Of a stretch of DNA of 64,000 nucleotides, positions 31,050 to 47,205 are shown one piece after another. The notes under the pieces were generated by a model. The model searched no databases. It worked only from the letters and a program-made list of their open reading frames with translations, and had not been told where the DNA came from. Numbering within the stretch: the stretch's first letter is position 1; each line of letters begins with the position of its first letter. A program made the position numbers and the translations under genes. The DNA is from Naegleria gruberi (taxonomy: Eukaryota): assembly GCA_000004985.1 (NCBI GenBank), contig GG738918.1; one strand, given 5' to 3'.

Positions 31050-33503
31050 TTATTTAAAGAGTTTTAATACCGTTTTGAATGTTCTTGTTTGATTCTCATT
31101 AAATATTTTGAGGTTTTGTTTCTTTTTCAGCATGTCATTAATAACGTTTGAATCTTTGTAAACTTTGTGAGGTTTTACAACTTCAGTTTGAACTTTGATA
31201 TTTTTCAGTAGATGGTTAGGACGGTTAGGATTGAGGAAACTATAATTTGGAAGAATGTCCTTGGCAGGTAGTGAATTTAATTGATTTTGAGGGAATTTGG
31301 TAAGAGTCATTTTGGTGGTTTCTTGATGTTGGAGGAAGAAGGAATAATCATCCTTATTTGGAACTGCTTCCAATTTTTCTGAAATAGCAGAACGAATCCT
31401 TTTCAATGTATCTTCTTTTAACCAGTTTGAAAGAACATGAATAAAATCTTCACGATGATCAAATAAGTGTTGAACTGGAGAATTTTCAAATACTTGTCTA
31501 ACCTCAGGTATTGGAACAATATACTTGTGTCTATGTGAAATAGATGATGAAATCTAATATTGACAATCTACTTACTTTGCAGAAACACATGAAGATACAC
31601 AAAATTCTAGTGGATTCAAAATGAAATTATCAGAAGCTGGCACATTAATTGTCAAGAATGAATCTGGTTTACCTTCCACTTCCTTCTCACAATATAAAAC
31701 TAATTCATCAATTGATGGAATTGATTTAGGTTTGTAATATTGTGAATATCCCAAATTCTTTCCCTGAATATAACTCATAAACCAGGCACACATCACCAAA
31801 TAATCCTTCACAATTGGTTGATAGGATACTTCTGCAATCTTTTGTTGGAGTTTCCTTATTGAATTTGCATACTTTTCAATTTGTTCCTGATAGAAAAATG
31901 ATAAAAACTCATTAAATTGTTCTCTAGTCTCAAAAAGTCCAGTTTTAACTTTGGCTTCTCTGTGAAGTTCTCCATAATCAAAATTTAAGAAAATATTCTT
32001 GAATGCATTATTGAAAGCATCCTTCTTTGATTTACCTCTTGCTGTTGTAATGTAGGATTCTCCAATTTTGACCACGACTTGGAAATGTGGTTTTGGTTCT
32101 GCATCAATAATTTCATATTCCTCACATAGAAATTCTCTCTTTCCAAGATTTAATAAGGTAATAAGAAATACCATTGCTTCCTTTGTTGGAATATTATCAA
32201 TGTTAATCTTTGGAAATCCATTTTCCATTTCAGCTTTCTTCTTTGAATTGGATGTTTCAGTATCTTCATTTTCACCTTGCTTGAAATCCTTAATATAATC
32301 AGAATATAATGAAGATAGGAACTTGACATTGATTTTCATTTCACTTGGCTGTTTCAAATCATAATGTATTAAATACTCTCTATTTTCTGAATACTTTTGG
32401 TGAGCAATATATCTATCCATAAATAATTTAATATCAAATCTTCTCGGTTTAGAAATATAATCATTTCCACATAGAATAAATAAAAAGGTCATATCTGTAA
32501 TAATTCTCGATAAATCTTCATCTGATTTAGTTCTACATCGACGAGCAATTTGTTCCTTTAGTTTGGTAACATCATATAATTGATAAAAACCAGGCATATC
32601 TTTCACAAGAGTAATATGTCTATTGCGTGGTAAATTGAGAGCATATAAAACAAAATCTGAATCTCCAGAAACAATCAAATCTCTCTTCTCCTCCTTTTTG
32701 TGATTGTTTTTCTCTGATGAATAAATATGTTCAAGGATTTTAAACTCTCCCTCACCTTCTCTCCCAGCAGGTGAATGATAGAATGCAAGATTATTATTAA
32801 AAGTAGGATTTGTTAGCACCAATGCACCCAATTGCCAAATAACTAGTGAAACTTCTTGCATTAAATTTGTTCCTGGAACAAACCAAACAGAACTAATTGC
32901 CTTCTTTTCATTTCTTTCATTAATTACATTTTTCTGAATGAGTTTCAGGTAAATCTTTTGCACTTCAGTGAGAACAATCTCTTCATCCATATCTGATAAA
33001 TTAATAAATGAAACAAACGTATTTCCAGTATTTGTCATTGCACTATTCAAATATCTTCTAACTTTTTGTGTAATTAATTTACTTCTAGGTGCAGGACCAT
33101 CCACAGAAAAGAATAAACTTTCTCTAGCATCAAAATGATTCAAATATCTCATTACTCCCTCCAAAACAACAGAATGAAAAACCATTCTAGTATCTTGTGG
33201 AATTTCTTCATCTTCTCCTTCTATCTTTGTACCATTATCCTTTTCTGTTGTTGAATCTTGTTCCAAAATTGATTCCTTTCCTTGATTCATTACATTTTGA
33301 TGGTATTTCATCCTATTCATTATCTTTCTAGAACCATGTGTTGATTTATACAGCAGAGTATTAAAATCAAAATAAATATTATCATAAACATCCTCTGGTT
33401 TAATTGAATTATTCCTCCTCGTATTATTTAATTCATCTTTTGTGATGATGAAAGATTCTCCGAAGAGAATTGATAAAGTTTTGTAGAATGAATTAATTCC
33501 CAT
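31050..33503 (-). CDS. XRN-family 5'-3' exoribonuclease homologue with a C-terminal double-stranded-RNA-binding motif
   Basis: Exons 31576..33503 and 31050..31530 join in frame through a 45-nt intron (31531..31575, 'gtaagtagattg...tttcacatag'). XRN N-terminal motifs: 'MGINSFYKTL', 'NIYFDFNTLLYKSTH', 'LFFSVDGPAPRSKLITQKVRR', 'REGEGEFKILEHI', 'LIVSGDSDFVLYAL', 'FILCGNDYISK'. dsRBM: 'PKPHFQVVVKIGESYITTARGKSKKDAFNNAFKNIFL'. Confidence 0.75.
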
Positions 33504-36444: not shown

Positions 36445-38961
36445 ATGTTTCATCCATTCAATCGATCATTTTCCATCTCGATCAATCATCGATGGGTAAA
36501 AAAAATCCATCTAAAAATTTATGTCATGGTTTCTCCAAGATCAAAAAAAATGCCAAGATCATCCACTCCAACCAAAAGGAAAACCATTCAACAGCCATTA
36601 ATATTTCAACCCACTTTGAAGAAAACTAAATCATCCGAAACAACGTTGAATTCTCCTATTACTATTAGTGATGATGGTGAGAATGAGGATTTATTGTTAT
36701 CAGCTGATGGAGATCAAGCACATGATGATGATATTGAAATATCAACAGAGACTGTTTCGGATTCATCAAGCAAATATTCAATTATTAGAACACCTATTAA
36801 TGATTCATCGACAGTGGATGAATTGGGATTGGAAAGTGTTGAAGCTCATGAACTTCAACAATATTTCAATGCTGAGAAATATTTAGCTAAAGAAAAAGGT
36901 AAATGTAAAAAGATTTATTGCATAGATAGAGGATCTTCATTTACAAAGGGTAACAAGTTTGATATTTTAGAAAAGAGAGTCAAACCAACTATATTAAAAT
37001 TTGGACATAAGGAAAAGACACAATTTTTACCTTCTCAAACATTTTACAATTTACAAAAAGGTCAAGTGAAGATGGGTAAATTTGAGGTTAGTAATGAATG
37101 GGAAGAATTGGAAAATTTGAAAAAGATATTCATGGTGAGTGAGTTATTGGAAATTGGATTAAAATCTGAGAAGAAGAAACTTAGAGTATCTCACATTATT
37201 TATTTAATGATTAGAGATTTAATATCTCAATTATTAACAACTAAAAAACAAGATTCTAATTATTTGGAAGGTATTGGTGCATGGATATTTACATGTCCAT
37301 CAGGAACAAGTGTATTTACTAAATTAATATTTAGAAATTGTATATTTAAAGCATATAATAGTTTAAACATTAATGAAAATAATCCATTACAAATAGATGA
37401 CATATATGTTATTGAGGAATGTACATTATTGAAATATTTTGCCAACAATCAAGAAAAAACATCTACAATGTTTGTTGATTTGGGTCATTTAACACTTGAT
37501 GTCGTTGTGATGGATTTAATTGATGGTGAATATATTGTAACATTTAAAAATGGTGAATCTAGTGGAATGTCACTCATACATCAATTATTAAAAGATAATG
37601 GATTAGATTCAATTAAGGAAATGGAAAATTTATTTGATAATTATCATGATTCTAATGAATTACCACCATCTTTATTACCTCTTAAAAATCAAATTGATGA
37701 AACATTGAAAACTATTACAAAACCTCTATGTATGATGATATTACAAAAGCAAGTAGATTCTATTCACTTTTCAGGTGCTATTACACGAGTTGCTTATTTT
37801 CAAAGAAAATTACAAGAAAATATTAGTTATGTACGTTTACAAAATATTAAGAATGAGCTACTTCCATATTTAAAAGAAGAATTCAAGAATAGAGATATAC
37901 CTATTATTGAATTTTTATGTGAAACTACAGGTGAAAGTGCTTTACTATCAGGTGCAGAAGAAATGATTAATTGTTCTTTAATGAAAATTTCACAAAATGA
38001 ACTCGATTGTAATGTTCCAATTATATTTAAGGAGAAATCTATTAGTGAACAAGTACTTAGTGAACCCTCAATATCATCAATACCAGAAATGAATGAACAA
38101 ACACTACCAACTACTATTGATTGTTTATTATCATCTATTAGTTATAATGACAGTAATAATATTGAGCAGTATGTACCTGCCATGCTATTTGACCATTGCA
38201 ATAGTGGAAGGGTCGAAAAAAAAATGTTATTGGGAAATGTTTTACTAGACATGAATATTAAACAAGATACTGAAATATTTTTAATCAAGTTTAGTCCACT
38301 CATTGATACTAAATTAATATCAACTATTGATTATGAAAATTTTGAAAAAGTGGGAATTATTGAATTCATTAGATTTACCAATTTAATCATTTGTTTTGAT
38401 TGTAATCACATTAAAACTACTACCAATTTACACTTTTATATGAAGTTGGATTTGGAAGATGATTTCTTATTAGTTAGAATTTATTATACTAAAGGTAAAT
38501 CCTTTTTTAAAACTATTACACGAATTGAAAGAAAAGGAAGAAATGAAAGAATTTCCATTAATGATTCTGCTCAACTAATTTTTAAAACAAAAGAAGATGA
38601 AGTAAGAACATGGTATGGTGTATATTATGATACTTTGAGTATTGTATCCAGTTTTTCAAGTATTTCCATTAAATATGCAGAATTAGAAAACGAAATTGGA
38701 GTTGAAAAAGCAAAGGGATTACATGTTGGTAGCAAGCAGCTATCTATTCCAAGTATTGGATCAAAAGATAAGGAATTTGTAAGAAAACACCTTTCTAAAT
38801 GTTCTGTTTGTCAATGCGAAATTAAGAAGGTGCATGCTTGTATTTCTTATAACAAACTACCAATATTTAGAAAAGTATTTGATGATAATTCCATTAATCT
38901 TGGAAATTGTTGTAGTCCTTGTTATAGAATCTATAATGATTTAAAAAAGGAAGAAAAATAG
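36445..38961 (+). CDS. Hsp70/actin-fold (ASKHA) ATPase-like protein with degenerate nucleotide-binding motifs and a C-terminal Cys cluster
   Basis: 838-codon ORF with alternative ATGs at 36526 and 36550; the last has the A-run context. Collinear Hsp70-like blocks: 'IYCIDRGSSFTKG' (phosphate 1), 'GAWIFTCPSGTSVFTKLIFRNCIFKA', 'IYVIEECTLLKYF', 'MFVDLGHLTLDVVVMDLIDGEYIV' (phosphate 2), 'IHFSGAITRVAYFQRKLQE'. C-terminus: 'CSVCQCEIKKVHAC...NCCSPCYRIY'. Confidence 0.6.
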   Translation: MFHPFNRSFSISINHRWVKKIHLKIYVMVSPRSKKMPRSSTPTKRKTIQQPLIFQPTLKKTKSSETTLNSPITISDDGENEDLLLSADGDQAHDDDIEISTETVSDSSSKYSIIRTPINDSSTVDELGLESVEAHELQQYFNAEKYLAKEKGKCKKIYCIDRGSSFTKGNKFDILEKRVKPTILKFGHKEKTQFLPSQTFYNLQKGQVKMGKFEVSNEWEELENLKKIFMVSELLEIGLKSEKKKLRVSHIIYLMIRDLISQLLTTKKQDSNYLEGIGAWIFTCPSGTSVFTKLIFRNCIFKAYNSLNINENNPLQIDDIYVIEECTLLKYFANNQEKTSTMFVDLGHLTLDVVVMDLIDGEYIVTFKNGESSGMSLIHQLLKDNGLDSIKEMENLFDNYHDSNELPPSLLPLKNQIDETLKTITKPLCMMILQKQVDSIHFSGAITRVAYFQRKLQENISYVRLQNIKNELLPYLKEEFKNRDIPIIEFLCETTGESALLSGAEEMINCSLMKISQNELDCNVPIIFKEKSISEQVLSEPSISSIPEMNEQTLPTTIDCLLSSISYNDSNNIEQYVPAMLFDHCNSGRVEKKMLLGNVLLDMNIKQDTEIFLIKFSPLIDTKLISTIDYENFEKVGIIEFIRFTNLIICFDCNHIKTTTNLHFYMKLDLEDDFLLVRIYYTKGKSFFKTITRIERKGRNERISINDSAQLIFKTKEDEVRTWYGVYYDTLSIVSSFSSISIKYAELENEIGVEKAKGLHVGSKQLSIPSIGSKDKEFVRKHLSKCSVCQCEIKKVHACISYNKLPIFRKVFDDNSINLGNCCSPCYRIYNDLKKEEK

Positions 38962-39074: not shown

Positions 39075-41525
39075 TCAATTTCCAGACAGGTTGTTAATGT
39101 GATTCTTATAGATAGAGATTAGTTCTAAAACTTGTCTAACTTCTTGGAAGTTGATAGTGTTGTGAGTAGTTGATGGATTTTCACGATTACTAAATGAGAG
39201 ATTTCTCCAATAATTTGCAACATTAACATCTGCACAATTTTGTTCCTTTCTAAACTTTTTCAAATTATAGAAGAGTCCAACAAGATTCCCTCTAAGGTAT
39301 TTCTTTGCAGTCTCATTGAATTGTTTGATATCTTGTTCAATAGATAAAAGTTGCTCATTGTAAAAAATGTTGATGGATTGGCAGAGTTCTATGTATATAT
39401 TTTTGAATTGTGAAAATGGTTTGGTGAAGAGGGGATTGAGATTGTTCACTAAATGATCTTCATTCACTTGATTAGAGAATTTACTTTGCATGATGGATGA
39501 AACTATTCTTGTATCATTATATTTTGATGAGGTCAACTCGTATGGAGGATTTTCTAGAACATACTTGTCCAGTTTTGAGACTAAATAATTGACATTACAC
39601 AATCTGAGAGAGGGAATATTTGAGTGAAGAGATGACTTCAATATAAAACATTTGTATGGTTGTTTGAAATTGACAAACTCTAGTCCTTCATATTCGAGGG
39701 GTGAGAACTTTTCAAAATCATTCACAAAATCCTGAAGGTCCAAAAATCCTATATCTGAATATGATTTAACAAAGTCGTTCCAATTATATTTTGTAGAAAA
39801 ATCAATCCAATTTTCATATTCCATCATAGATTCTAGATTTCTACTCCCACAATAAATAATTCTATTACTATTTTTCTGATAAATGAAGAAAAAGTTCAAC
39901 ATTTGATCTTCATGGGATGGATACTTCATTCCAATTCTTTCAAACAGATTTTCAAATTCCTGTTCAGTTTGACTCATATCAAAATTCTTGAGAATCCATT
40001 TGGAAATCCAATTGTCCTTTTCATCATCAAAGACAAACCTCCACTCACCAGAATAAAAGAAAAGCGAACACCTTATCCCAACTGGCCTTTCTAGAATTTG
40101 AATTGAGCTCATGTCAATATCTGAAAAATAGTCACTACCAACTTTTTCTAGTATGAAATTATAATCCATAGCATAGAATCTAGGAACACATACAGGAGTG
40201 TAAACTATCTTTCCATTATCATCAATATTATAAGATAGTACTGTTCCATTACATTCCAAGTAGGACCTACATTCTAAGAAAAGTTTACACAATTCTAAGG
40301 AAATATATTCCATATCACAATCTATCTTGAATAGTTGAGAACTATTAGGATTAAGATGCTCCTCTTTGGATCTAATAATTGGTGTCACATTCACTGAAAG
40401 TAATCTCATCAAGCTGTATGGACCGTATTTGTAGTGGTGTGAAAAGTCTAGTTCATAATTATGCTCTACAACCATTATTAATTCACTAAACAGTGGATTA
40501 TCCTTTTCAAAGCCTGAAGAATATGTATTCAGGAAGTTTTGAATACCCAATGAACTATTGCTTTCTGAGTTTTTACATTTGAAAAGGGCATCTTTGATAA
40601 TATTCTTCAGATCATCTTTTAATTGTTCCTTCCATGTCTTATAGAGTGCATCACTAATTTGTTTATACTCATTCCAAGAACTAAATGAATCAGTATGAAA
40701 TACAATGCTGTCATAGAGTTTGTTAGTTTCGGTATAATCATATATAATACCTGAATTAACAAATTGATAAGCATATTTCGAGTATCTAATACCATGAGCT
40801 AGGTTTTTCTTCACCTTCTTTAGAGTACTTTTCCTTTCACTTTCATCCTTGCAAAGTTTGTTCTCCAAAACATTCCAAAATCTAAATGCCTTATTAAAGC
40901 AATGATGAAGCTCGTGAAGGAATGAATTTTTAGTTCTAGAAATTCTCAAAAACCACAAACTCCAATGATGCCTCCATAATTTCATCTTTTCATCCTCAAA
41001 CAGAACAAATGATGAATTTGGTTGCAGAACAGATAGCATGAATATTGGCAATTGTAAATAAACATGGTCCACAAAGAATGAAGTTTCCATAATGTGCACT
41101 TCCATATCGTATTCCTTCTCTTCTAATTTACCCTCCTCATCATCACAATTACACTTAATAGAGCTTTTCAATAAATATTGTAAATTATTAGAATATCTCG
41201 TTTCATAATCAATACAATGAGAGTAAAAATCATCAACAATCATTATTAAATCAAAATCAGAATCGTTTACATTGGTTTTTGAAACTCTTGATCCGAACAC
41301 GTAAATTCCTCTAATCGAATCATCACGATATAAAACCTTGTCCTTCAACAAGCCTTCTTCAGAAATTGTAATAAAATTGCGAATATGATAAATTAATTCA
41401 TCACTTGAGAAGGGAAATTTAAATTGATTTTCATGGAAATGATGTGATTGCCAATATTGACTCGGTCCAGTACTCTCTTTATCATAACGGAAATTATTAA
41501 TGGTGCATTTTGGAAATTGTTGCAT
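39075..41525 (-). CDS. Pol-beta-superfamily nucleotidyltransferase-domain protein with a large C-terminal region containing ligase-like motifs
   Basis: 816-codon ORF with an A-run before the ATG at 41525. NTase signature 'VFGSRVSKTNVNDSDFDLIMIV' (GS-x9-SDxD). The C-terminal half has 'ILERPVGIRCSLFFYSGEWRF', 'RIIYCGSRN' and 'YEGLEFVNFKQPYKCFILKS', which resemble covalent nucleotidyltransferase motifs I, IIIa and IV/V. Confidence 0.6.
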   Translation of the reverse strand: MQQFPKCTINNFRYDKESTGPSQYWQSHHFHENQFKFPFSSDELIYHIRNFITISEEGLLKDKVLYRDDSIRGIYVFGSRVSKTNVNDSDFDLIMIVDDFYSHCIDYETRYSNNLQYLLKSSIKCNCDDEEGKLEEKEYDMEVHIMETSFFVDHVYLQLPIFMLSVLQPNSSFVLFEDEKMKLWRHHWSLWFLRISRTKNSFLHELHHCFNKAFRFWNVLENKLCKDESERKSTLKKVKKNLAHGIRYSKYAYQFVNSGIIYDYTETNKLYDSIVFHTDSFSSWNEYKQISDALYKTWKEQLKDDLKNIIKDALFKCKNSESNSSLGIQNFLNTYSSGFEKDNPLFSELIMVVEHNYELDFSHHYKYGPYSLMRLLSVNVTPIIRSKEEHLNPNSSQLFKIDCDMEYISLELCKLFLECRSYLECNGTVLSYNIDDNGKIVYTPVCVPRFYAMDYNFILEKVGSDYFSDIDMSSIQILERPVGIRCSLFFYSGEWRFVFDDEKDNWISKWILKNFDMSQTEQEFENLFERIGMKYPSHEDQMLNFFFIYQKNSNRIIYCGSRNLESMMEYENWIDFSTKYNWNDFVKSYSDIGFLDLQDFVNDFEKFSPLEYEGLEFVNFKQPYKCFILKSSLHSNIPSLRLCNVNYLVSKLDKYVLENPPYELTSSKYNDTRIVSSIMQSKFSNQVNEDHLVNNLNPLFTKPFSQFKNIYIELCQSINIFYNEQLLSIEQDIKQFNETAKKYLRGNLVGLFYNLKKFRKEQNCADVNVANYWRNLSFSNRENPSTTHNTINFQEVRQVLELISIYKNHINNLSGN

Positions 41526-41698: not shown

Positions 41699-41829
41699 CT
41701 ATTAAGGATTAGTTTTTGTGCAAATTATCCAAAAATAAGAAATGATTGACAAATTACTTCGATATTTATCATGTGATCTATATCTTAGCTAGCTGTATCT
41801 CTCACAGGATATCATCTCTCGACCCGTCA

Positions 41830-43440
41830 ATGTCCATTAGTATCATTAGAAAAAAAAACGAATCTTATATCATGAACGAAACCTTTCTCTACAACAATAC
41901 AGCCTTCTCTTCATGTCCCAGTTGGTTTCCTTATCACCTCGTCGACCCATCCACTCTATCTAATAACAATACACTCGATATGGAATGTCCTGATACAATT
42001 CTCGTTCCAATAACAAGTGGAATTTTATATGGATCTTATTTAATATTATTTTTAATTTGTTTAATTTTTCTAATTTGGAAGAGGAAGGCATCTACTATCA
42101 AGGCCAGATCGCCCGTCATTTTATCTTTTGGATTAGTTGCAAATTTTACCTTAGTTTCCCTAGCATTAATTCGGTGCATTGTTGGAAAAACTGATTTTCC
42201 ATGTTTTTTATTTTCGATATTTTACTTTATTTTAGGACCGTGTTTTGTGGTGCCGTCAATTATTAGAGGAATTGAACTGATTATTCAATATAAGGTCAAT
42301 TTATTGAGAGCTAAGAGTATTTCTAGATGTAATCTTTCGAATAATTATTCGACACAGGTGCAGGATGTTAAGAGTGATGTTGTGAGTGAGAAGACTGAAA
42401 CTCAATCAGAATGTGGAACTTCATATAAGGAAACTAGATCAGTACGAGTATTGACAACTTTGAATAGAATACTGCAGAGTGCTATATTTCATTTGTGTTT
42501 TACTTTATTCTTGTTGATATTTCATTTGGGCATTTGGTTATGTTCTGGGTTGATTGAAGATGGTTTCTATTCGAAACACAGATTTTTCATGACTAATGCC
42601 AGTATTTTGAGTGTTGGAGGATGTTATTCATCTACTGGAAGTTCGATTGCCATGGCTGTGTTTGTTGGATTATATTTTATCATTGACTTGATAATTAATA
42701 TTATATGTTTGACAATTGACAATGACACATTCAACATCAAGATTGGAAATCTAGGCATGACAGTAGTAAGAATACTATGTGGTATATTTTACCTTGTATT
42801 TTCACAAGTTCCAGTTTTAAGATCTACTGGCAGAATCATTCCTTCTATTTATGTATTTATCCTAAACTGTATTGTTGAACTAATTGTCACAATTCTCATT
42901 CCATCCATTAAAGATTGTATAGATAAGATGAAATACCAATCAAAATACAACCAATCAGAAATTGAATGTGTTTTAAATGACCAAAAACTTTTCAATATTT
43001 TAATTGATTTTTCAAGAAGAAGTTACAGCCCTGAAAGTGTTTTATTTTACAAAGATATTCAACATTACAAACAATTGGTGGCAAAGCTTGAAATGATGGA
43101 AAATGGAGCTTTTCAACATGTTGAGTCAATTAAGAATTTACGTGTGAAAATTACACGTTTCGTTCAGAATATTGTTCATGTTTATTTATGTGAAGGAAGT
43201 GTTAATGAATTGAATATTCCTAATTTGAAAATGAAGAAATTGGAATTGACCAACAAGATTGCTGCATGTATAGAATTTGAATCTAATAGATTTACCAGGG
43301 ATTTATTCGATTCAATCTTGGTAGAATCAATGCTCACTCTGATGGAAGTGTATCATCGATTGAAACAACAAAACCCCACCATACGACAATTCTCCCTACA
43401 TTGGAAAAATGATCAAGACAAGCTCAACAATTCACTGTAA
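41830..43440 (+). CDS. Seven-transmembrane RGS protein (7TM-RGS, AtRGS1-like architecture), paralogue 1
   Basis: The track start is a TTG; the first ATG is at 41830. Cys-containing N-terminal ectodomain 'CPSWFPYHLVDPSTLSNNNTLDMECPDTILVP'. Seven hydrophobic helices. C-terminal RGS-like domain 'LFNILIDFSRRSYSPESVLFYKDIQHYKQL ... YLCEGSVNELNIPN'. Confidence 0.7.
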   Translation: MSISIIRKKNESYIMNETFLYNNTAFSSCPSWFPYHLVDPSTLSNNNTLDMECPDTILVPITSGILYGSYLILFLICLIFLIWKRKASTIKARSPVILSFGLVANFTLVSLALIRCIVGKTDFPCFLFSIFYFILGPCFVVPSIIRGIELIIQYKVNLLRAKSISRCNLSNNYSTQVQDVKSDVVSEKTETQSECGTSYKETRSVRVLTTLNRILQSAIFHLCFTLFLLIFHLGIWLCSGLIEDGFYSKHRFFMTNASILSVGGCYSSTGSSIAMAVFVGLYFIIDLIINIICLTIDNDTFNIKIGNLGMTVVRILCGIFYLVFSQVPVLRSTGRIIPSIYVFILNCIVELIVTILIPSIKDCIDKMKYQSKYNQSEIECVLNDQKLFNILIDFSRRSYSPESVLFYKDIQHYKQLVAKLEMMENGAFQHVESIKNLRVKITRFVQNIVHVYLCEGSVNELNIPNLKMKKLELTNKIAACIEFESNRFTRDLFDSILVESMLTLMEVYHRLKQQNPTIRQFSLHWKNDQDKLNNSL

Positions 43441-43686: not shown

Positions 43687-43826
43687 AAGTCGTGCGATAG
43701 AAAAAGAAATTTTGGAATAGTTAAAGTTGAGGAAGAAGATGATTGTTCTCCACAACACAAAAAGACTAAATTGTGAGGGATATCAAGTTGAATGAAGATA
43801 TCTCATCCAAATAATAATTTAATAAT

Positions 43827-46800
43827 TTATTCTAAAAGTCTTCTTCTTCTATCGATATCATCATCCTCATCATCACTTGTAAAATTGCTAACATCATCCT
43901 CATCTTCCTCTTCATCCTCATCAGCTATTGCTGGTATTGACACTTCCTCAATATCTGCCAATAATTTAGCTTTAGTGAAAACTGTACCAATACCACGTCC
44001 AAAATATTCACAAACCAGAGAATAACCATCCAACTTCTTGGTATTAAGTTGCTTAAAGAAGGATTCGTGTTGTTCACTCGACTCTTCGAATTTTCTCTTT
44101 CTTTGGAGAATATCTCTGTGCTTATCAGAACAAACTCTACATTCACCTTCATTACCAACAAGGAGACATCTTTGATGGTATGAGTGATTACACATGAAAT
44201 GTACAGCAGGCAAGTCCAATTGAGCATTACAGAAAGTACAAGTGGTAGCTTGGAAAGTTTTGGCACTGGTTTGTAAATCGTAAATTTCCTTTCTCATTTG
44301 AGCAGTTTCAGTTTGGAATTCCTTGATCTTTTCTACATCTTCTCTTATCATTTCTTGTTCTTTTTGAATTTTAGAAATCAGATAGTCCTTTACAGAATAG
44401 AGTTTGGTCTTTTCATTCTTACCAAGAATTTGAACAACCAGTAATGGAGGTAAAATTTCATCCTTTTCAATCTTTTCTAATACAATAGCTAATTCTTCTT
44501 CAACATTATCATCCAATGTGGCAAAATATGTGAGAACTTGAACCCACAAATTTGGATCCTTGTCACCATATTGATTAACAGAGGCGATTACATTCTTGTA
44601 ATCACGTTGCTCCATATAATATTGGATAATATAATAGTGAAGACCCAAAGTATCATAAATCTTGAGTACACCTTCTTTAAAGTTTTGTGATTGGACAAGA
44701 ACAAGAACGTGCTCCTTATCATAGTTAGATTGTGGATGGTCGAGTGTATAAAGCAATCTATCTTTAAAGCTCAAATTGGCAATATCTGTGCTTGGTGGCT
44801 GAATTTCATATCTATCAGAAATGCCTTGAGTTTGCTCAAGTTCTGGTCTTTTCTTAGAATCAGTATCCAAATATTTAAGATAAAGTTCAATGAGCGTATT
44901 GTACACAACCTTGGAATGTGATGTATCTGGTCGAAGAGTTCTCCAAATAACATTTTCCAAAAATATCATTAACCAGTATTGATCCTTACTTGGGAAGCAA
45001 TGAATATATGACTCTGGTTTTGGTTTAGCATGTTCAATGTGTTGATTATTATACATATCTTCATATCCGGTAGTTTTAACAATTTGAGATTCAAGATTAG
45101 CAGATGATTGTTTCAAACCTAGAAGTACATTCAGAATACCCCCTTCTTTCTTCTTTTCTGCTTGGTTGCTTGAATCATTGGAGTTTGGTATAATTCTAAG
45201 CTTGTAATTATCAATGATTCTCTTTTGAGTTAACTTGATATCACTATCCAAAACTCTATTTGTTTCAGCAGGGTGAATTGGGAAATATTCTGTACACAAT
45301 CTTATGAGAGCGTTAGTAGTCTCTTTTGGTAAATGTGAAATGAGTGTTTTACCATAGGTTTTCAGATAACTTTCAGCTTCAGGTAAGGCAAGAGATTCAA
45401 TATATTTGAGCGCTCTTCTAAAGTTCTCTTTAGAATCAACCTTCTCGCCATTATCCTTGTCCAAATTATCTGTATCAAAGTCCTCCAAGTGAATCTTAAT
45501 GTACCAATCGTGTTGTTTGTGTTTCATGGCCAAAATGAGGGCATGTTCCTTGTAGCCGGCTTTTCTACAAACTCTAATAGCTGTCTCTACATCGTACATA
45601 AGCTTATCTTGCATACTGATAAACTTGTCGAGTTTTTCCTTTCTTTCATCCTTCAATTTGGTGTAACAGTTTAACAAGAGGGTTGTGTGATCAGAGGTGG
45701 CAAGACGTTTTTCGTGAAGGGTTTCAAGATATTCTGTAAGGTTACGAATTCTGTTTGCATCCAAGAATTTTCTGATAACATAGGATGGTTCCAATCTACC
45801 AATAGTTCTACAAAATTGTTTCATAGCTCCATCATAATCTTTCTTTGAATACAAGTGATCACCATATTGTTTTGAAATTTCAAACAAGTAATTACTGTCA
45901 AGTTGTTCACTATCAACTAAACTGATGGCAATCGAATAAAAGTTCTTTTGTAAAAGCAATTCCAACTTGGATTGGGTATCTTTTTCTTCCAAAAGGAACA
46001 TTTGTTGTTCAGATTTGTTTTCATCAATATTCGACAATAAAAAGACATTACCCCATTCTTGAAGAATATGTGTAATGTGTAATTTGTCACTCGAATATCT
46101 AAAGGCAATATACTTGTTTTTCAAATCATAAATAGTAATAACTTGTTGAGATTTGCTACTGGTTGTGTTAATATCTGAACTAATAACAATTAAATAATTT
46201 CTGAACCAATGTGACAAGATCTTTTTACCTTCAAAAGCAAAACAAGATCCTTTTCCTTCAGGTTTAAAGAACCAAACAGCAGATTTAGAAGAAACCACAA
46301 AATCTCCATCATTACTCAAAGTACTACATCCAACTTCACATCCAATAGTGTCATCTAAAATTACTTTTGATTGTTCAAGTGCTCTTTGTGATGTACTGCT
46401 ATTAGTATTAATAGAATATTTAAAAACTTGAGTAAGTGAACAACAGAATAAAGTATAATCATTAGGTGAATTACCATATCTCTTAAATCCTAATCCTGTT
46501 ATTCTCTCATTTGGAGCACCATCCAATAAAAACACTTTGTGTGATGACTTTCCTCCTTGTTTTGTAAAATCACCTTCAAATATAATAATTTTACCATTTC
46601 CTAAACCAAGTGCAATACAATTAAAATCTTGATTTGCTTCAAAACAACACACCGGATAAGGTTCCATATCTTTGATCTGACTAAATATCTTGATATCTCT
46701 TACTAATTGATATTGACCAAAACTTGTGTGACCTTCCTTTGTGTGTTCTTTATACTTGTCAAGAGAATAAATTTTCAATACATCCTGATAGGCTTCTCCA

Positions 46801-47051
46801 CCATCATCACCAACAACAACTAAACAATTAGATTTAGCAATATGTTTGATGTGATTAACTCTTGCTTCAAAGGCTTTACATTGACGTGTATTTAAATTTT
46901 TATCCATAACATGAAAAGTACCACGATTATCTCCGAATATAATATTACTTCTTCCGCTAGTACAACAAGTTACATTGGTCTGAGAGAAAAATTTTGATGA
47001 TTTCTCATCACTCACTGTATGCTTGTCAAAGAAGTTGAATTTCTTCCACAT
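43827..47051 (-). CDS. VPS11: VPS11, the HOPS/CORVET core subunit (beta-propeller, alpha-solenoid, C-terminal RING-H2)
   Basis: The start at 47051 ('caaaaaaaaATGtgg') gives 'MWKKFNFFDKH', compared with human 'WRRFVFFDKE'. C-terminus 'CTFCNAQLDLPAVHFMCNHSYHQRCL...ECRVCSDKH...VCEYFGRGIGTVF' matches VPS11 '[26 protein letters not shown]...DCPTC...IADYFGRGVFNK'. Acidic tail. Confidence 0.85.
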   Translation of the reverse strand: MWKKFNFFDKHTVSDEKSSKFFSQTNVTCCTSGRSNIIFGDNRGTFHVMDKNLNTRQCKAFEARVNHIKHIAKSNCLVVVGDDGGEAYQDVLKIYSLDKYKEHTKEGHTSFGQYQLVRDIKIFSQIKDMEPYPVCCFEANQDFNCIALGLGNGKIIIFEGDFTKQGGKSSHKVFLLDGAPNERITGLGFKRYGNSPNDYTLFCCSLTQVFKYSINTNSSTSQRALEQSKVILDDTIGCEVGCSTLSNDGDFVVSSKSAVWFFKPEGKGSCFAFEGKKILSHWFRNYLIVISSDINTTSSKSQQVITIYDLKNKYIAFRYSSDKLHITHILQEWGNVFLLSNIDENKSEQQMFLLEEKDTQSKLELLLQKNFYSIAISLVDSEQLDSNYLFEISKQYGDHLYSKKDYDGAMKQFCRTIGRLEPSYVIRKFLDANRIRNLTEYLETLHEKRLATSDHTTLLLNCYTKLKDERKEKLDKFISMQDKLMYDVETAIRVCRKAGYKEHALILAMKHKQHDWYIKIHLEDFDTDNLDKDNGEKVDSKENFRRALKYIESLALPEAESYLKTYGKTLISHLPKETTNALIRLCTEYFPIHPAETNRVLDSDIKLTQKRIIDNYKLRIIPNSNDSSNQAEKKKEGGILNVLLGLKQSSANLESQIVKTTGYEDMYNNQHIEHAKPKPESYIHCFPSKDQYWLMIFLENVIWRTLRPDTSHSKVVYNTLIELYLKYLDTDSKKRPELEQTQGISDRYEIQPPSTDIANLSFKDRLLYTLDHPQSNYDKEHVLVLVQSQNFKEGVLKIYDTLGLHYYIIQYYMEQRDYKNVIASVNQYGDKDPNLWVQVLTYFATLDDNVEEELAIVLEKIEKDEILPPLLVVQILGKNEKTKLYSVKDYLISKIQKEQEMIREDVEKIKEFQTETAQMRKEIYDLQTSAKTFQATTCTFCNAQLDLPAVHFMCNHSYHQRCLLVGNEGECRVCSDKHRDILQRKRKFEESSEQHESFFKQLNTKKLDGYSLVCEYFGRGIGTVFTKAKLLADIEEVSIPAIADEDEEEDEDDVSNFTSDDEDDDIDRRRRLLE

Positions 47052-47205
47052 TTTTTTTTGATGAAAAGATTTTTTAGTTTTTAAAAATTGATGATCCCGA
47101 ATAGAATATGCAATTCTGTCGTTCATGAAACTGTGATGATTAGTAATGGATTAACAAAATGTTTAAAGTCAAGCTATTGAGAATGCAAAGATGACAGTGA
47201 AGGGT

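Follow-up and report, generated by a model that had tools for sequence, protein, structure and literature searches.

A stretch of 64,000 nucleotides from the amoeba Naegleria gruberi (contig GG738918.1 of assembly GCA_000004985.1), referred to here as the window, carries on its minus strand at 39075-41525 a gene for a two-module protein, in which a Pol-beta nucleotidyltransferase (NTase) precedes a domain of RNA ligase ancestry whose catalytic lysine has been replaced by arginine. By our estimate the chances are slightly better than even that this protein is a two-module processor of RNA ends, in which the NTase would act on RNA 3' termini and the ligase-like domain, predicted to be inactive as a ligase, would serve as the RNA-recognition module. 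The initial annotation of the locus had proposed one open reading frame (ORF) with a minimal NTase motif at its N-terminus and a ligase-like domain without the motif I lysine behind it. The ORF was borne out as an uninterrupted frame of 816 aa in which all of the quoted peptide strings are present. The division into two modules also stood, while the upstream Rnl1 motifs (ECNG and VPRF), the C-terminal helical domain and the existence of a paralogue family had been missed.

The ORF can be aligned from end to end with an 817-aa protein of N. fowleri and with orthologues of 828 and 951 aa, and the features recognised along it are collected in Table 1.

Table 1. Features of the fusion gene, in window coordinates (residue numbers refer to the 816-aa protein).
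Feature	Position	Strand	Basis
Complete coding sequence of the two-module protein	39075..41525	(-)	one uninterrupted ORF, 816 aa + stop
Pol-beta nucleotidyltransferase core, residues ~63-150	41076..41339	(-)	Pfam PF18765 + PF01909
hG[GS]...DxD motif FGSRVSKTNVNDSDFDLIMIV, residues 77-97 (G78, S79, D90, D92)	41235..41297	(-)	invariant, 14-sequence alignment
E142, predicted third metal-binding carboxylate	41100..41102	(-)	D/E column in 12/14 family members
Helical NTase extension, residues ~150-320	40566..41078	(-)	collinear with RlaP by hhalign
Signature helix KNLAHGIRYSKYAYQFVNSGIIY, residues 240-262	40740..40808	(-)	conserved across fused family
Rnl1-type ligase (adenylyltransferase-fold) domain, residues ~410-650, catalytically degenerate by prediction	39576..40298	(-)	
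E424-C-N426-G, counterpart of Rnl1 'ECRG'; T4 R54 -> N426	40245..40256	(-)	ECNG invariant, seven orthologues
V447-P-R449-F, counterpart of Rnl1 'EKFFN'; T4 K75 -> R449	40176..40187	(-)	V447, P448, R449 invariant (seven orthologues); 450 variable
Motif I remnant ILERPVG, residues 477-483; R480 in nucleophile column (T4 K99)	40077..40097	(-)	P481, G483 invariant
Motif III remnant FFFIYQ, residues 545-550, without Glu (T4 E159)	39876..39893	(-)	F545, F547, Q550 invariant
Motif IIIa RIIYCGSRN, residues 555-563	39837..39863	(-)	aligned to IVLHGxRN/D; I557, G560, R562 invariant
Motif IV EYEGLEFVN, residues 611-619; E613-G614 kept	39669..39695	(-)	aligned to EGFVVxD; EG in 5/7 orthologues
Motif V remnant YKCFILKS, residues 624-631; first Lys -> I628, K630 kept	39633..39656	(-)	aligned to NRVKIKS
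C-terminal all-helical domain, residues ~651-816	39078..39575	(-)	AlphaFold model helical at protein residues 654-762

The nucleotidyltransferase module and its likeness to RlaP

The N-terminal module is recognised directly by Pfam. Residues 63-114 matched Polbeta (PF18765) with 29.3 bits against a cut-off of 26.9 (expectation value, E, 1e-6), the N-terminal half scored on its own reached 31.1 bits against the same family, and NTP_transf_2 (PF01909) was matched at 21.1 bits against a cut-off of 21; both families were matched by 13 of the 14 family members. The GS...DxD motif singled out by the initial annotation is that of a Pol-beta NTase, here with an RlaP-like extension. None of these 14 members of the wider family departs from G78, S79, D90 or D92 in an alignment of the N-terminal halves. 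The column of E142 lies where the third metal ligand of Pol-beta enzymes is found, and hhalign pairs this residue with the acidic position (D/E) of 'NIDHELY' in T4 NrdC.11. The sequence carries the complete hG[GS]...[DE]h[DE]h pattern together with a third acidic residue on a later strand and, with its catalytic set (G78 and S79, D90, D92 and E142) intact, the enzyme is apparently competent. At around 320 residues the module is far above the size of a minimal NTase, and the fusion protein also contains an N-terminal leader of about 60 residues as well as inserts.

The Pol-beta family that the initial annotation had named as an associate of RNA ligases corresponds to RlaP, the genes of which adjoin RNA ligase genes in repair operons (PMC12776372). 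Pseudomonas RlaP was shown in vitro to add one or two nucleoside monophosphates (NMP) to an RNA 3'-OH with a preference for damaged RNAs, an activity known only for this RlaP (PMC12776372). When the family profile was compared by hhalign with a small RlaP profile of six phage sequences (T4 NrdC.11 and relatives), family residues 76-216 were aligned to NrdC.11 residues 8-128 with 95% probability (E 3.4e-8, 113 columns), the reversed and shuffled controls returning P values of 0.6-0.95. The similarity runs past the NTase core into the helical region of RlaP, the post-core region alone giving P 0.0024 against its collinear RlaP counterpart. Further downstream, and still in collinear order, lies the signature helix KNLAHGIRYSKYAYQFVNSGIIY, in which K240, R247 and Q254 are invariant across the fused family and H244 and G259 nearly so, and which found its best hhalign match (P 0.0035) in KALSHACRGGLQLLEIYKTGDLV, residues 243-265 of T4 NrdC.11. 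It took the six-sequence profile to obtain this result; T4 NrdC.11 used alone as the hhalign target recovered the 18-residue core motif only, as did BLASTP.

PF10127, the Pfam family of RlaP, was matched by five of the 14 family members, in every case below threshold (best E 2e-4), and a single member scored individually obtained 16.9 bits against the cut-off of 23 over the core motif only. A homologue search with the N-terminal family alignment was uninformative, yielding only five close relatives and no RlaP, no RlaP structure was found in searches of the PDB with NrdC.11 or with the family profile, and the N. gruberi protein had no match in PHROGs, where phrog_388 ('nucleotidyltransferase') was matched only by more distant fused relatives. 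Against NCBIfam it gave only sub-threshold core-motif matches (MntA_antitoxin and ANT_9). On the profile-profile alignments we read the N-terminal module as a divergent RlaP-like enzyme standing outside formal Pfam membership.

The foremost alternative is that the NTase modifies a protein or a small molecule, in the manner of MntA-type antitoxins or aminoglycoside nucleotidyltransferases (ANT), with the ligase-fold module having a nucleotide-binding or regulatory part. The best PDB and NCBIfam matches of the NTase core are in fact minimal enzymes of the MNT/MntA and ANT types (9xbd, E 8e-6; 5yep, 4e-4; ANT(3'')(9), 1.5e-3; MntA, E 1e-4 and below its cut-off). However, these matches span only the universal GS/DxD core of roughly 50-80 residues, while the extension beyond it is collinear with RlaP. 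The fused partner is moreover of RNA-ligase descent, known Rnl1 substrates being RNA ends, and neither a HEPN nor a toxin partner accompanies this eukaryotic nuclear gene. We regard a non-RNA substrate as unlikely.

The ligase-like module and the state of its active site

The ancestry of the C-terminal half, to which single-sequence searches were blind, was uncovered by profile methods. From 1.84 billion representatives, a profile of residues 355-816 built from five orthologues only retrieved 69 proteins at E<=1e-3, and among its 61 distant matches 34 belonged to Pfam RNA_lig_T4_1 (PF09511) and seven to RNA_ligase. Compared by hhalign with 29 canonical members, the orthologue profile was aligned over 225 columns with 99.5% probability and E 5e-23 (reversed-sequence control, P 0.2), and a mixed profile matched T4 Rnl1 crystal-structure sequences (2c5u) at E 3e-10 over Rnl1 residues 49-259. 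An AlphaFold model of residues 400-770, computed from a 27-sequence alignment, reached a predicted local distance difference test score (pLDDT) of 86.6 and a predicted template modelling score (pTM) of 0.81. Submitted to Foldseek against the PDB, it retrieved three T4 Rnl1 entries first (E 1.7e-8 to 1.7e-7), followed by Rnl3, Trl1, NgrRnl and DNA ligases. The fold found is that of covalent nucleotidyltransferases, closest to Rnl1/Trl1, and homology to PF09511 emerges from the profile comparisons. The helical tail sits where the helical C-domain of T4 Rnl1 sits and keeps an NPLF..Y motif common to canonical relatives, a second HMMER stretch in this region being not significant. Judged by profiles and by the predicted structure, residues ~410-650, with the tail to residue 816 putatively of the same origin, are descended from an ATP-dependent RNA ligase of the T4 Rnl1/Trl1 type.

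Profile searches and Foldseek encountered neither a C-terminal half unrelated to the ligase fold nor an N-terminal motif of some other fold, the two outcomes that the initial annotation had specified beforehand as fatal to its proposal. Three other candidates were discarded during these searches. PH0099/LigT (whole protein against PDB sequences, E 0.49) and Hfx_Cass5 (whole protein against Pfam, E 0.08) were taken as noise, and a match of the orthologue profile to the PDK2 N-terminal helical domain (residues 588-672, window ~39510-39764, E 0.1-0.8) was judged spurious, the stretch forming the motif IV-V beta strands in the confident ligase-fold model.

The residues essential to T4 Rnl1 are R54, K75, K99, E159, E227, G228, K240 and K242, and it is at several of these positions that the Naegleria protein departs from the canonical enzymes. 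Its motif I stretch ILERPVGIRCSLFF aligns with the EKLDGSLxxLYxY of canonical Rnl1-like ligases, placing R480 in the lysine column. The codon for R480 is AGG (40086-40088) and is AGA in a near-identical metagenome copy, and because the two are synonymous for Arg a sequencing error is unlikely. Across the seven orthologues column 480 reads R/K/N/N/K/N/K, with R in the query protein, K (as part of K-P-x-G) in N. fowleri, Willaertia and one other, and N in three. The Glu of motif III is paired with I548 by hhalign or with Q550 by hmmalign, the query segment being without any acidic residue, and a deletion of about ten residues follows this motif relative to canonical Rnl1-like proteins. The two lysine columns of motif V read I/S/Q/Q/E/Q/H and K/L/Q/K/K/R/K respectively among the orthologues. 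Of the hallmarks of Rnl1, motif IIIa and the EG of motif IV are kept, and the Lys of motif I, the Glu of motif III and the first Lys of the motif V KxK are missing.

Much of this had been anticipated. RIIYCGSRN, YEGLEFV and YKCFILKS, which the initial annotation took for motifs IIIa, IV and V, align in the right order with IVLHGxRN, EGFVV and RVKIKS, and the absence of the motif I lysine from R-P-V-G was verified by alignment. The degeneration is wider than had been described, extending to the ECRG Arg, the motif III Glu and the first motif V Lys. As to whether another lysine could stand in as the nucleophile, a question raised by the initial annotation and addressed here by conservation, no lysine is conserved within residues 410-650 across the seven orthologues. 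Replacement of the motif I lysine of the Naegleria ligase NgrRnl by A, M, Q or H abolished its adenylylation (PMC4408790). Because motif I Lys is R480, the ECRG Arg is N426, motif III lacks its Glu and the first Lys of motif V is I628, the fusion protein is predicted to be unable to run the classic pathway through a ligase-adenosine monophosphate (AMP) intermediate and to be inactive as a sealer of 5'-P and 3'-OH ends.

It is conceivable, although improbable in our estimate, that the ligase-like module remains enzymatic by a non-canonical chemistry, for example the final sealing of a 5' end activated otherwise, possibly by the fused Pol-beta domain, which would make the fusion a lysine-independent RNA ligase. 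Far from being eroded, the pocket is conserved (E424, N426, R449, G483, Q550, R562 and E613-G614 are kept in the query), and in no member of the family do the two modules occur apart. Truncated NgrRnl was reported to perform phosphodiester synthesis at a pre-adenylylated nick (PMC4408790). It is established that classic ligases with a mutated motif I lysine can still seal pre-adenylylated ends. On the other hand, two residues that classic ligases require for the later steps as well, the Glu of motif III and the first Lys of motif V, are absent, and neither the EG nor the second Lys of motif V is constant among orthologues. Pol-beta NTases transfer NMP to hydroxyls, and we know of none that transfers to a 5'-phosphate.

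Selection, family evolution and genomic setting

The ligase-like domain appears to be maintained. Among seven orthologues at 33-45% identity, 33 residues of the ligase core are invariant, including the polar pocket residues E424, N426, R449, Q550, R562 and E569. The ratio of non-synonymous to synonymous substitution rates (dN/dS) against the near-identical metagenome copy is 0.14 overall, 0.10 in the NTase half and 0.18 over codons 355-815 in the ligase-containing half, figures that rest on only 29 differences and are indicative rather than firm. The invariant residues at such identity, together with the low dN/dS, are indicative of a domain kept functional under purifying selection and not decaying. 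The metagenome copy (ENA ERZ929261, contig k127_58208, gene 483-2933) differs at 29 of 2451 nucleotides, and the source amoeba or a very close relative was thus present in that sample.

These data bear on the possibility that the ligase-like half is a functionless relic carried by a working NTase, or that the gene as a whole is drifting. The catalytic losses do form a patchwork among the orthologues (K, R or N in motif I, EG lost in two of seven, motif V variable), and the paralogue set is expanded and fast-evolving. Against this, the domain is conserved at full length with its invariant core between species of such divergence, the dN/dS of its codons is low and the change at codon 480 is itself synonymous, the predicted fold is compact and confident, and the ORF is intact. 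A relic is to our minds a poor explanation, with little probability left to it.

A survey of homologues, as advised by the initial annotation, showed the lysine loss to be confined to particular lineages. In a neighbour-joining tree the query stands beside the N. fowleri protein with its K, and more distant paralogues also have K, in the form K-P-x-G. Since K occurs both in this sister and in distant paralogues, the motif I lysine is, as far as the tree and alignments indicate, ancestral, and was lost at least twice in a lineage-specific manner. A profile of the N-terminal module from four orthologues finds the whole module in paralogues of N. gruberi, N. lovaniensis, Willaertia and Balamuthia and on protist metagenome contigs (E 1e-63 to 1e-11), in which the same N- and C-terminal modules co-occur. 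The fused paralogues (N. gruberi D2VHR9 and D2VWB6, N. lovaniensis C9374_003489, Willaertia ABK040_007007, and Balamuthia KAL6056841 and KAL6062794) have both modules as in the query but vary in their state of decay, most keeping K in K-P-x-G or K-x-x-G and some keeping the motif III Glu. Neither the query nor the N. gruberi paralogues EFC43642 and EFC38870 figure among the seven published Rnl1-family ligases of this species (Unciuleac and Shuman 2015; PMC4408790).

Several members are peculiar in other respects. KAL6056841 of Balamuthia mandrillaris, annotated as 'Npa1 domain-containing protein', has ERLDG at motif I and otherwise canonical ligase motifs (FMFE, LHGARN), and its Arg in place of the nucleophile Lys seems to have arisen by a separate change from K to R. 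Other paralogues have an NTase motif that is altered or can be aligned only in part, D2VHR9 having a 24-residue insert between GS and DxD, and GS being unalignable in C9374_003489 and D2VWB6. All three keep the motif I lysine of K-P-x-G and are in this respect the reverse of the query. A 631-aa N. gruberi orthologue lacks the entire GS/DxD region present in every other orthologue, which is probably due to a truncated public gene model and not to a real loss.

Full-length homologues were found only in heteroloboseans and metagenomes (N. fowleri at 43% identity, N. gruberi, Willaertia magna and the 99%-identical metagenome copy). The window, with a G+C content of 23-35%, contains ordinary eukaryotic genes nearby, namely VPS11 (43827-47126) and an RGS-domain membrane protein (41746-43440), and further genes for a tubulin, an XRN-type exonuclease, a ThiF/E2-binding E1 enzyme, an adenylate cyclase and Rogdi. 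By this distribution and these neighbours the ORF is identified as a nuclear gene of a heterolobosean amoeba and not a gene of a prokaryotic operon.

Three other ORFs of the window deserve mention. Convergent with the fusion gene, their 3' ends facing, lies an 838-aa ORF at 36445-38961 on the plus strand that has no Pfam match at E<=1 but contains a stretch, DLGHLTLDVVV, resembling by eye those of actin/Hsp70-type ATPases, as well as a Cys-rich C-terminus. A 643-aa ORF on the minus strand (31572-33503), about 6 kb from the fusion gene, encodes the N-terminal domain of an XRN 5'-3' exonuclease (E 4e-32) and is another RNA-end enzyme, no evidence tying its function to that of the fusion gene. 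Lastly, opposite the part of VPS11 that encodes its acidic C-terminal tail, the plus strand carries a Ser-rich ORF of 77 aa (43792-44025), which almost certainly arises from the low-complexity coding sequence of the other strand.

Proposed function and comparison with known systems

We propose that the protein is a 3'-terminal RNA nucleotidyltransferase in which the pseudo-ligase serves for RNA recognition. According to the study of NgrRnl, ligases of the Rnl1 type are adapted to mending breaks that lie in the loop of an RNA stem-loop (PMC4408790). The pseudo-ligase module would likewise recognise and hold RNA in broken or processed form, such as a stem-loop of tRNA type whose ends are free, and present its 3'-OH to the attached NTase. 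The NTase would then extend it by one nucleotide or a few, in keeping with the in vitro activity of bacterial RlaP, and sealing, if any, would be left to separate canonical ligases. Such ligases are numerous in these organisms, 13 classic RNA ligases and two RtcB proteins having been reported in N. gruberi (PMC4408790).

Several observations weigh against this proposal. We infer both the binding of RNA by the pseudo-ligase and the use of RNA as the NTase substrate from homology. In the search of the query against Pfam with hmmscan, PF10127 was not matched at E<=10 and its gathering threshold of 23 bits was not reached, such that the RlaP assignment rests on profile-profile evidence and not on a Pfam threshold. 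Similarly, the query fell short of the gathering threshold of PF09511 and none of the five orthologues matched this family in hmmscan at E<=10, the assignment to this family resting on profile-profile and transitive evidence and on predicted structure. The N-terminal half was modelled poorly (pLDDT 30-60) in a full-length AlphaFold prediction from five sequences with an overall pLDDT of 51. Finally, sister orthologues that keep K might retain some partial ligase chemistry, and function may differ across the clade.

Two further interpretations are less probable than any of those weighed above. A lysine-independent RNA repair enzyme with two active sites may be imagined, in which the Pol-beta module refills 3' nucleotides or activates an RNA end while the remodelled Rnl1 pocket (E424, N426, R449, Q550, R562 and E613) binds both ends and catalyses or templates their joining without ligase-AMP; this would amount to a novel way of ligating RNA that arose in free-living amoebae, and we accord it a very low probability. 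That the ligase motifs are a chance resemblance in a half of another fold, such as the PDK N-terminal helical bundle or a 2H phosphoesterase, has in its favour weak single matches only (PDK2, E 0.11; PH0099 LigT, E 0.49) and the lack of any direct orthologue hit to PF09511, and is already refuted, with practically no probability remaining, by the ligase fold that profiles, hhalign and Foldseek all returned at high significance.

RlaP-like NTases, Rnl1-type ligases and their functional association are known already. What sets the present case apart is the fusion in one eukaryotic polypeptide, the loss under selection of the nucleophile and other catalytic residues, and the protist family with its graded loss, and it should be noted that Burroughs and Aravind 2016 may already catalogue the fusion. 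Under the proposed RNA-end-processing reading, the protein matters in several ways. The operon partnership of RlaP and ligase in bacterial and phage RNA repair is here hard-wired in one eukaryotic polypeptide, offering a handle on how the two activities cooperate. Should the inactivity of the ligase be confirmed, the Rnl1 branch would gain what is, as far as we could find, its first catalytically dead representative kept under selection, extending to RNA ligases the pseudo-enzyme theme of snurportin and poxvirus A22 and suggesting the Rnl1 fold as a pure sensor of broken RNA ends. With K, R or N in the nucleophile position, the graded loss of motifs amounts to a natural mutational series that could help to separate RNA recognition from catalysis in Rnl1-type ligases. 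In addition, Naegleria and its relatives, among them the pathogen N. fowleri with its own orthologues, possess an unusually large set of RNA-repair proteins, to which members that had gone unrecognised are now added.

Of the known systems, RlaP (T4 NrdC.11) resembles the N-terminal module in its Pol-beta catalytic motifs, in its collinear helical extension and in the common K-x-L-x-H-x-x-R...G helix. It also has a partner of the RNA ligase family, an association realised here by fusion within one polypeptide. The Naegleria protein differs from RlaP in being a eukaryotic covalent fusion instead of an operon neighbour, in the degenerate state of its ligase partner, in falling outside PF10127, and in its leader and inserts. 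The ligase domain of T4 Rnl1/Trl1 shares with the C-terminal module the order of its motifs, including the Rnl1-specific upstream ECRG and KFFN elements, with IIIa and IV recognisable, as well as a helical domain after the adenylyltransferase core. T4 Rnl1, however, stands alone and the ligase of Trl1 precedes kinase/CPD domains, whereas the module described here lies behind an N-terminal Pol-beta NTase. The non-catalytic representatives of ligase and capping-enzyme folds, namely the m3G-cap-binding domain of snurportin-1 and the poxvirus A22 processivity factor, are only distant structural relatives, belonging to the capping-enzyme or DNA-ligase branches and not to Rnl1, and neither is fused to a Pol-beta NTase.

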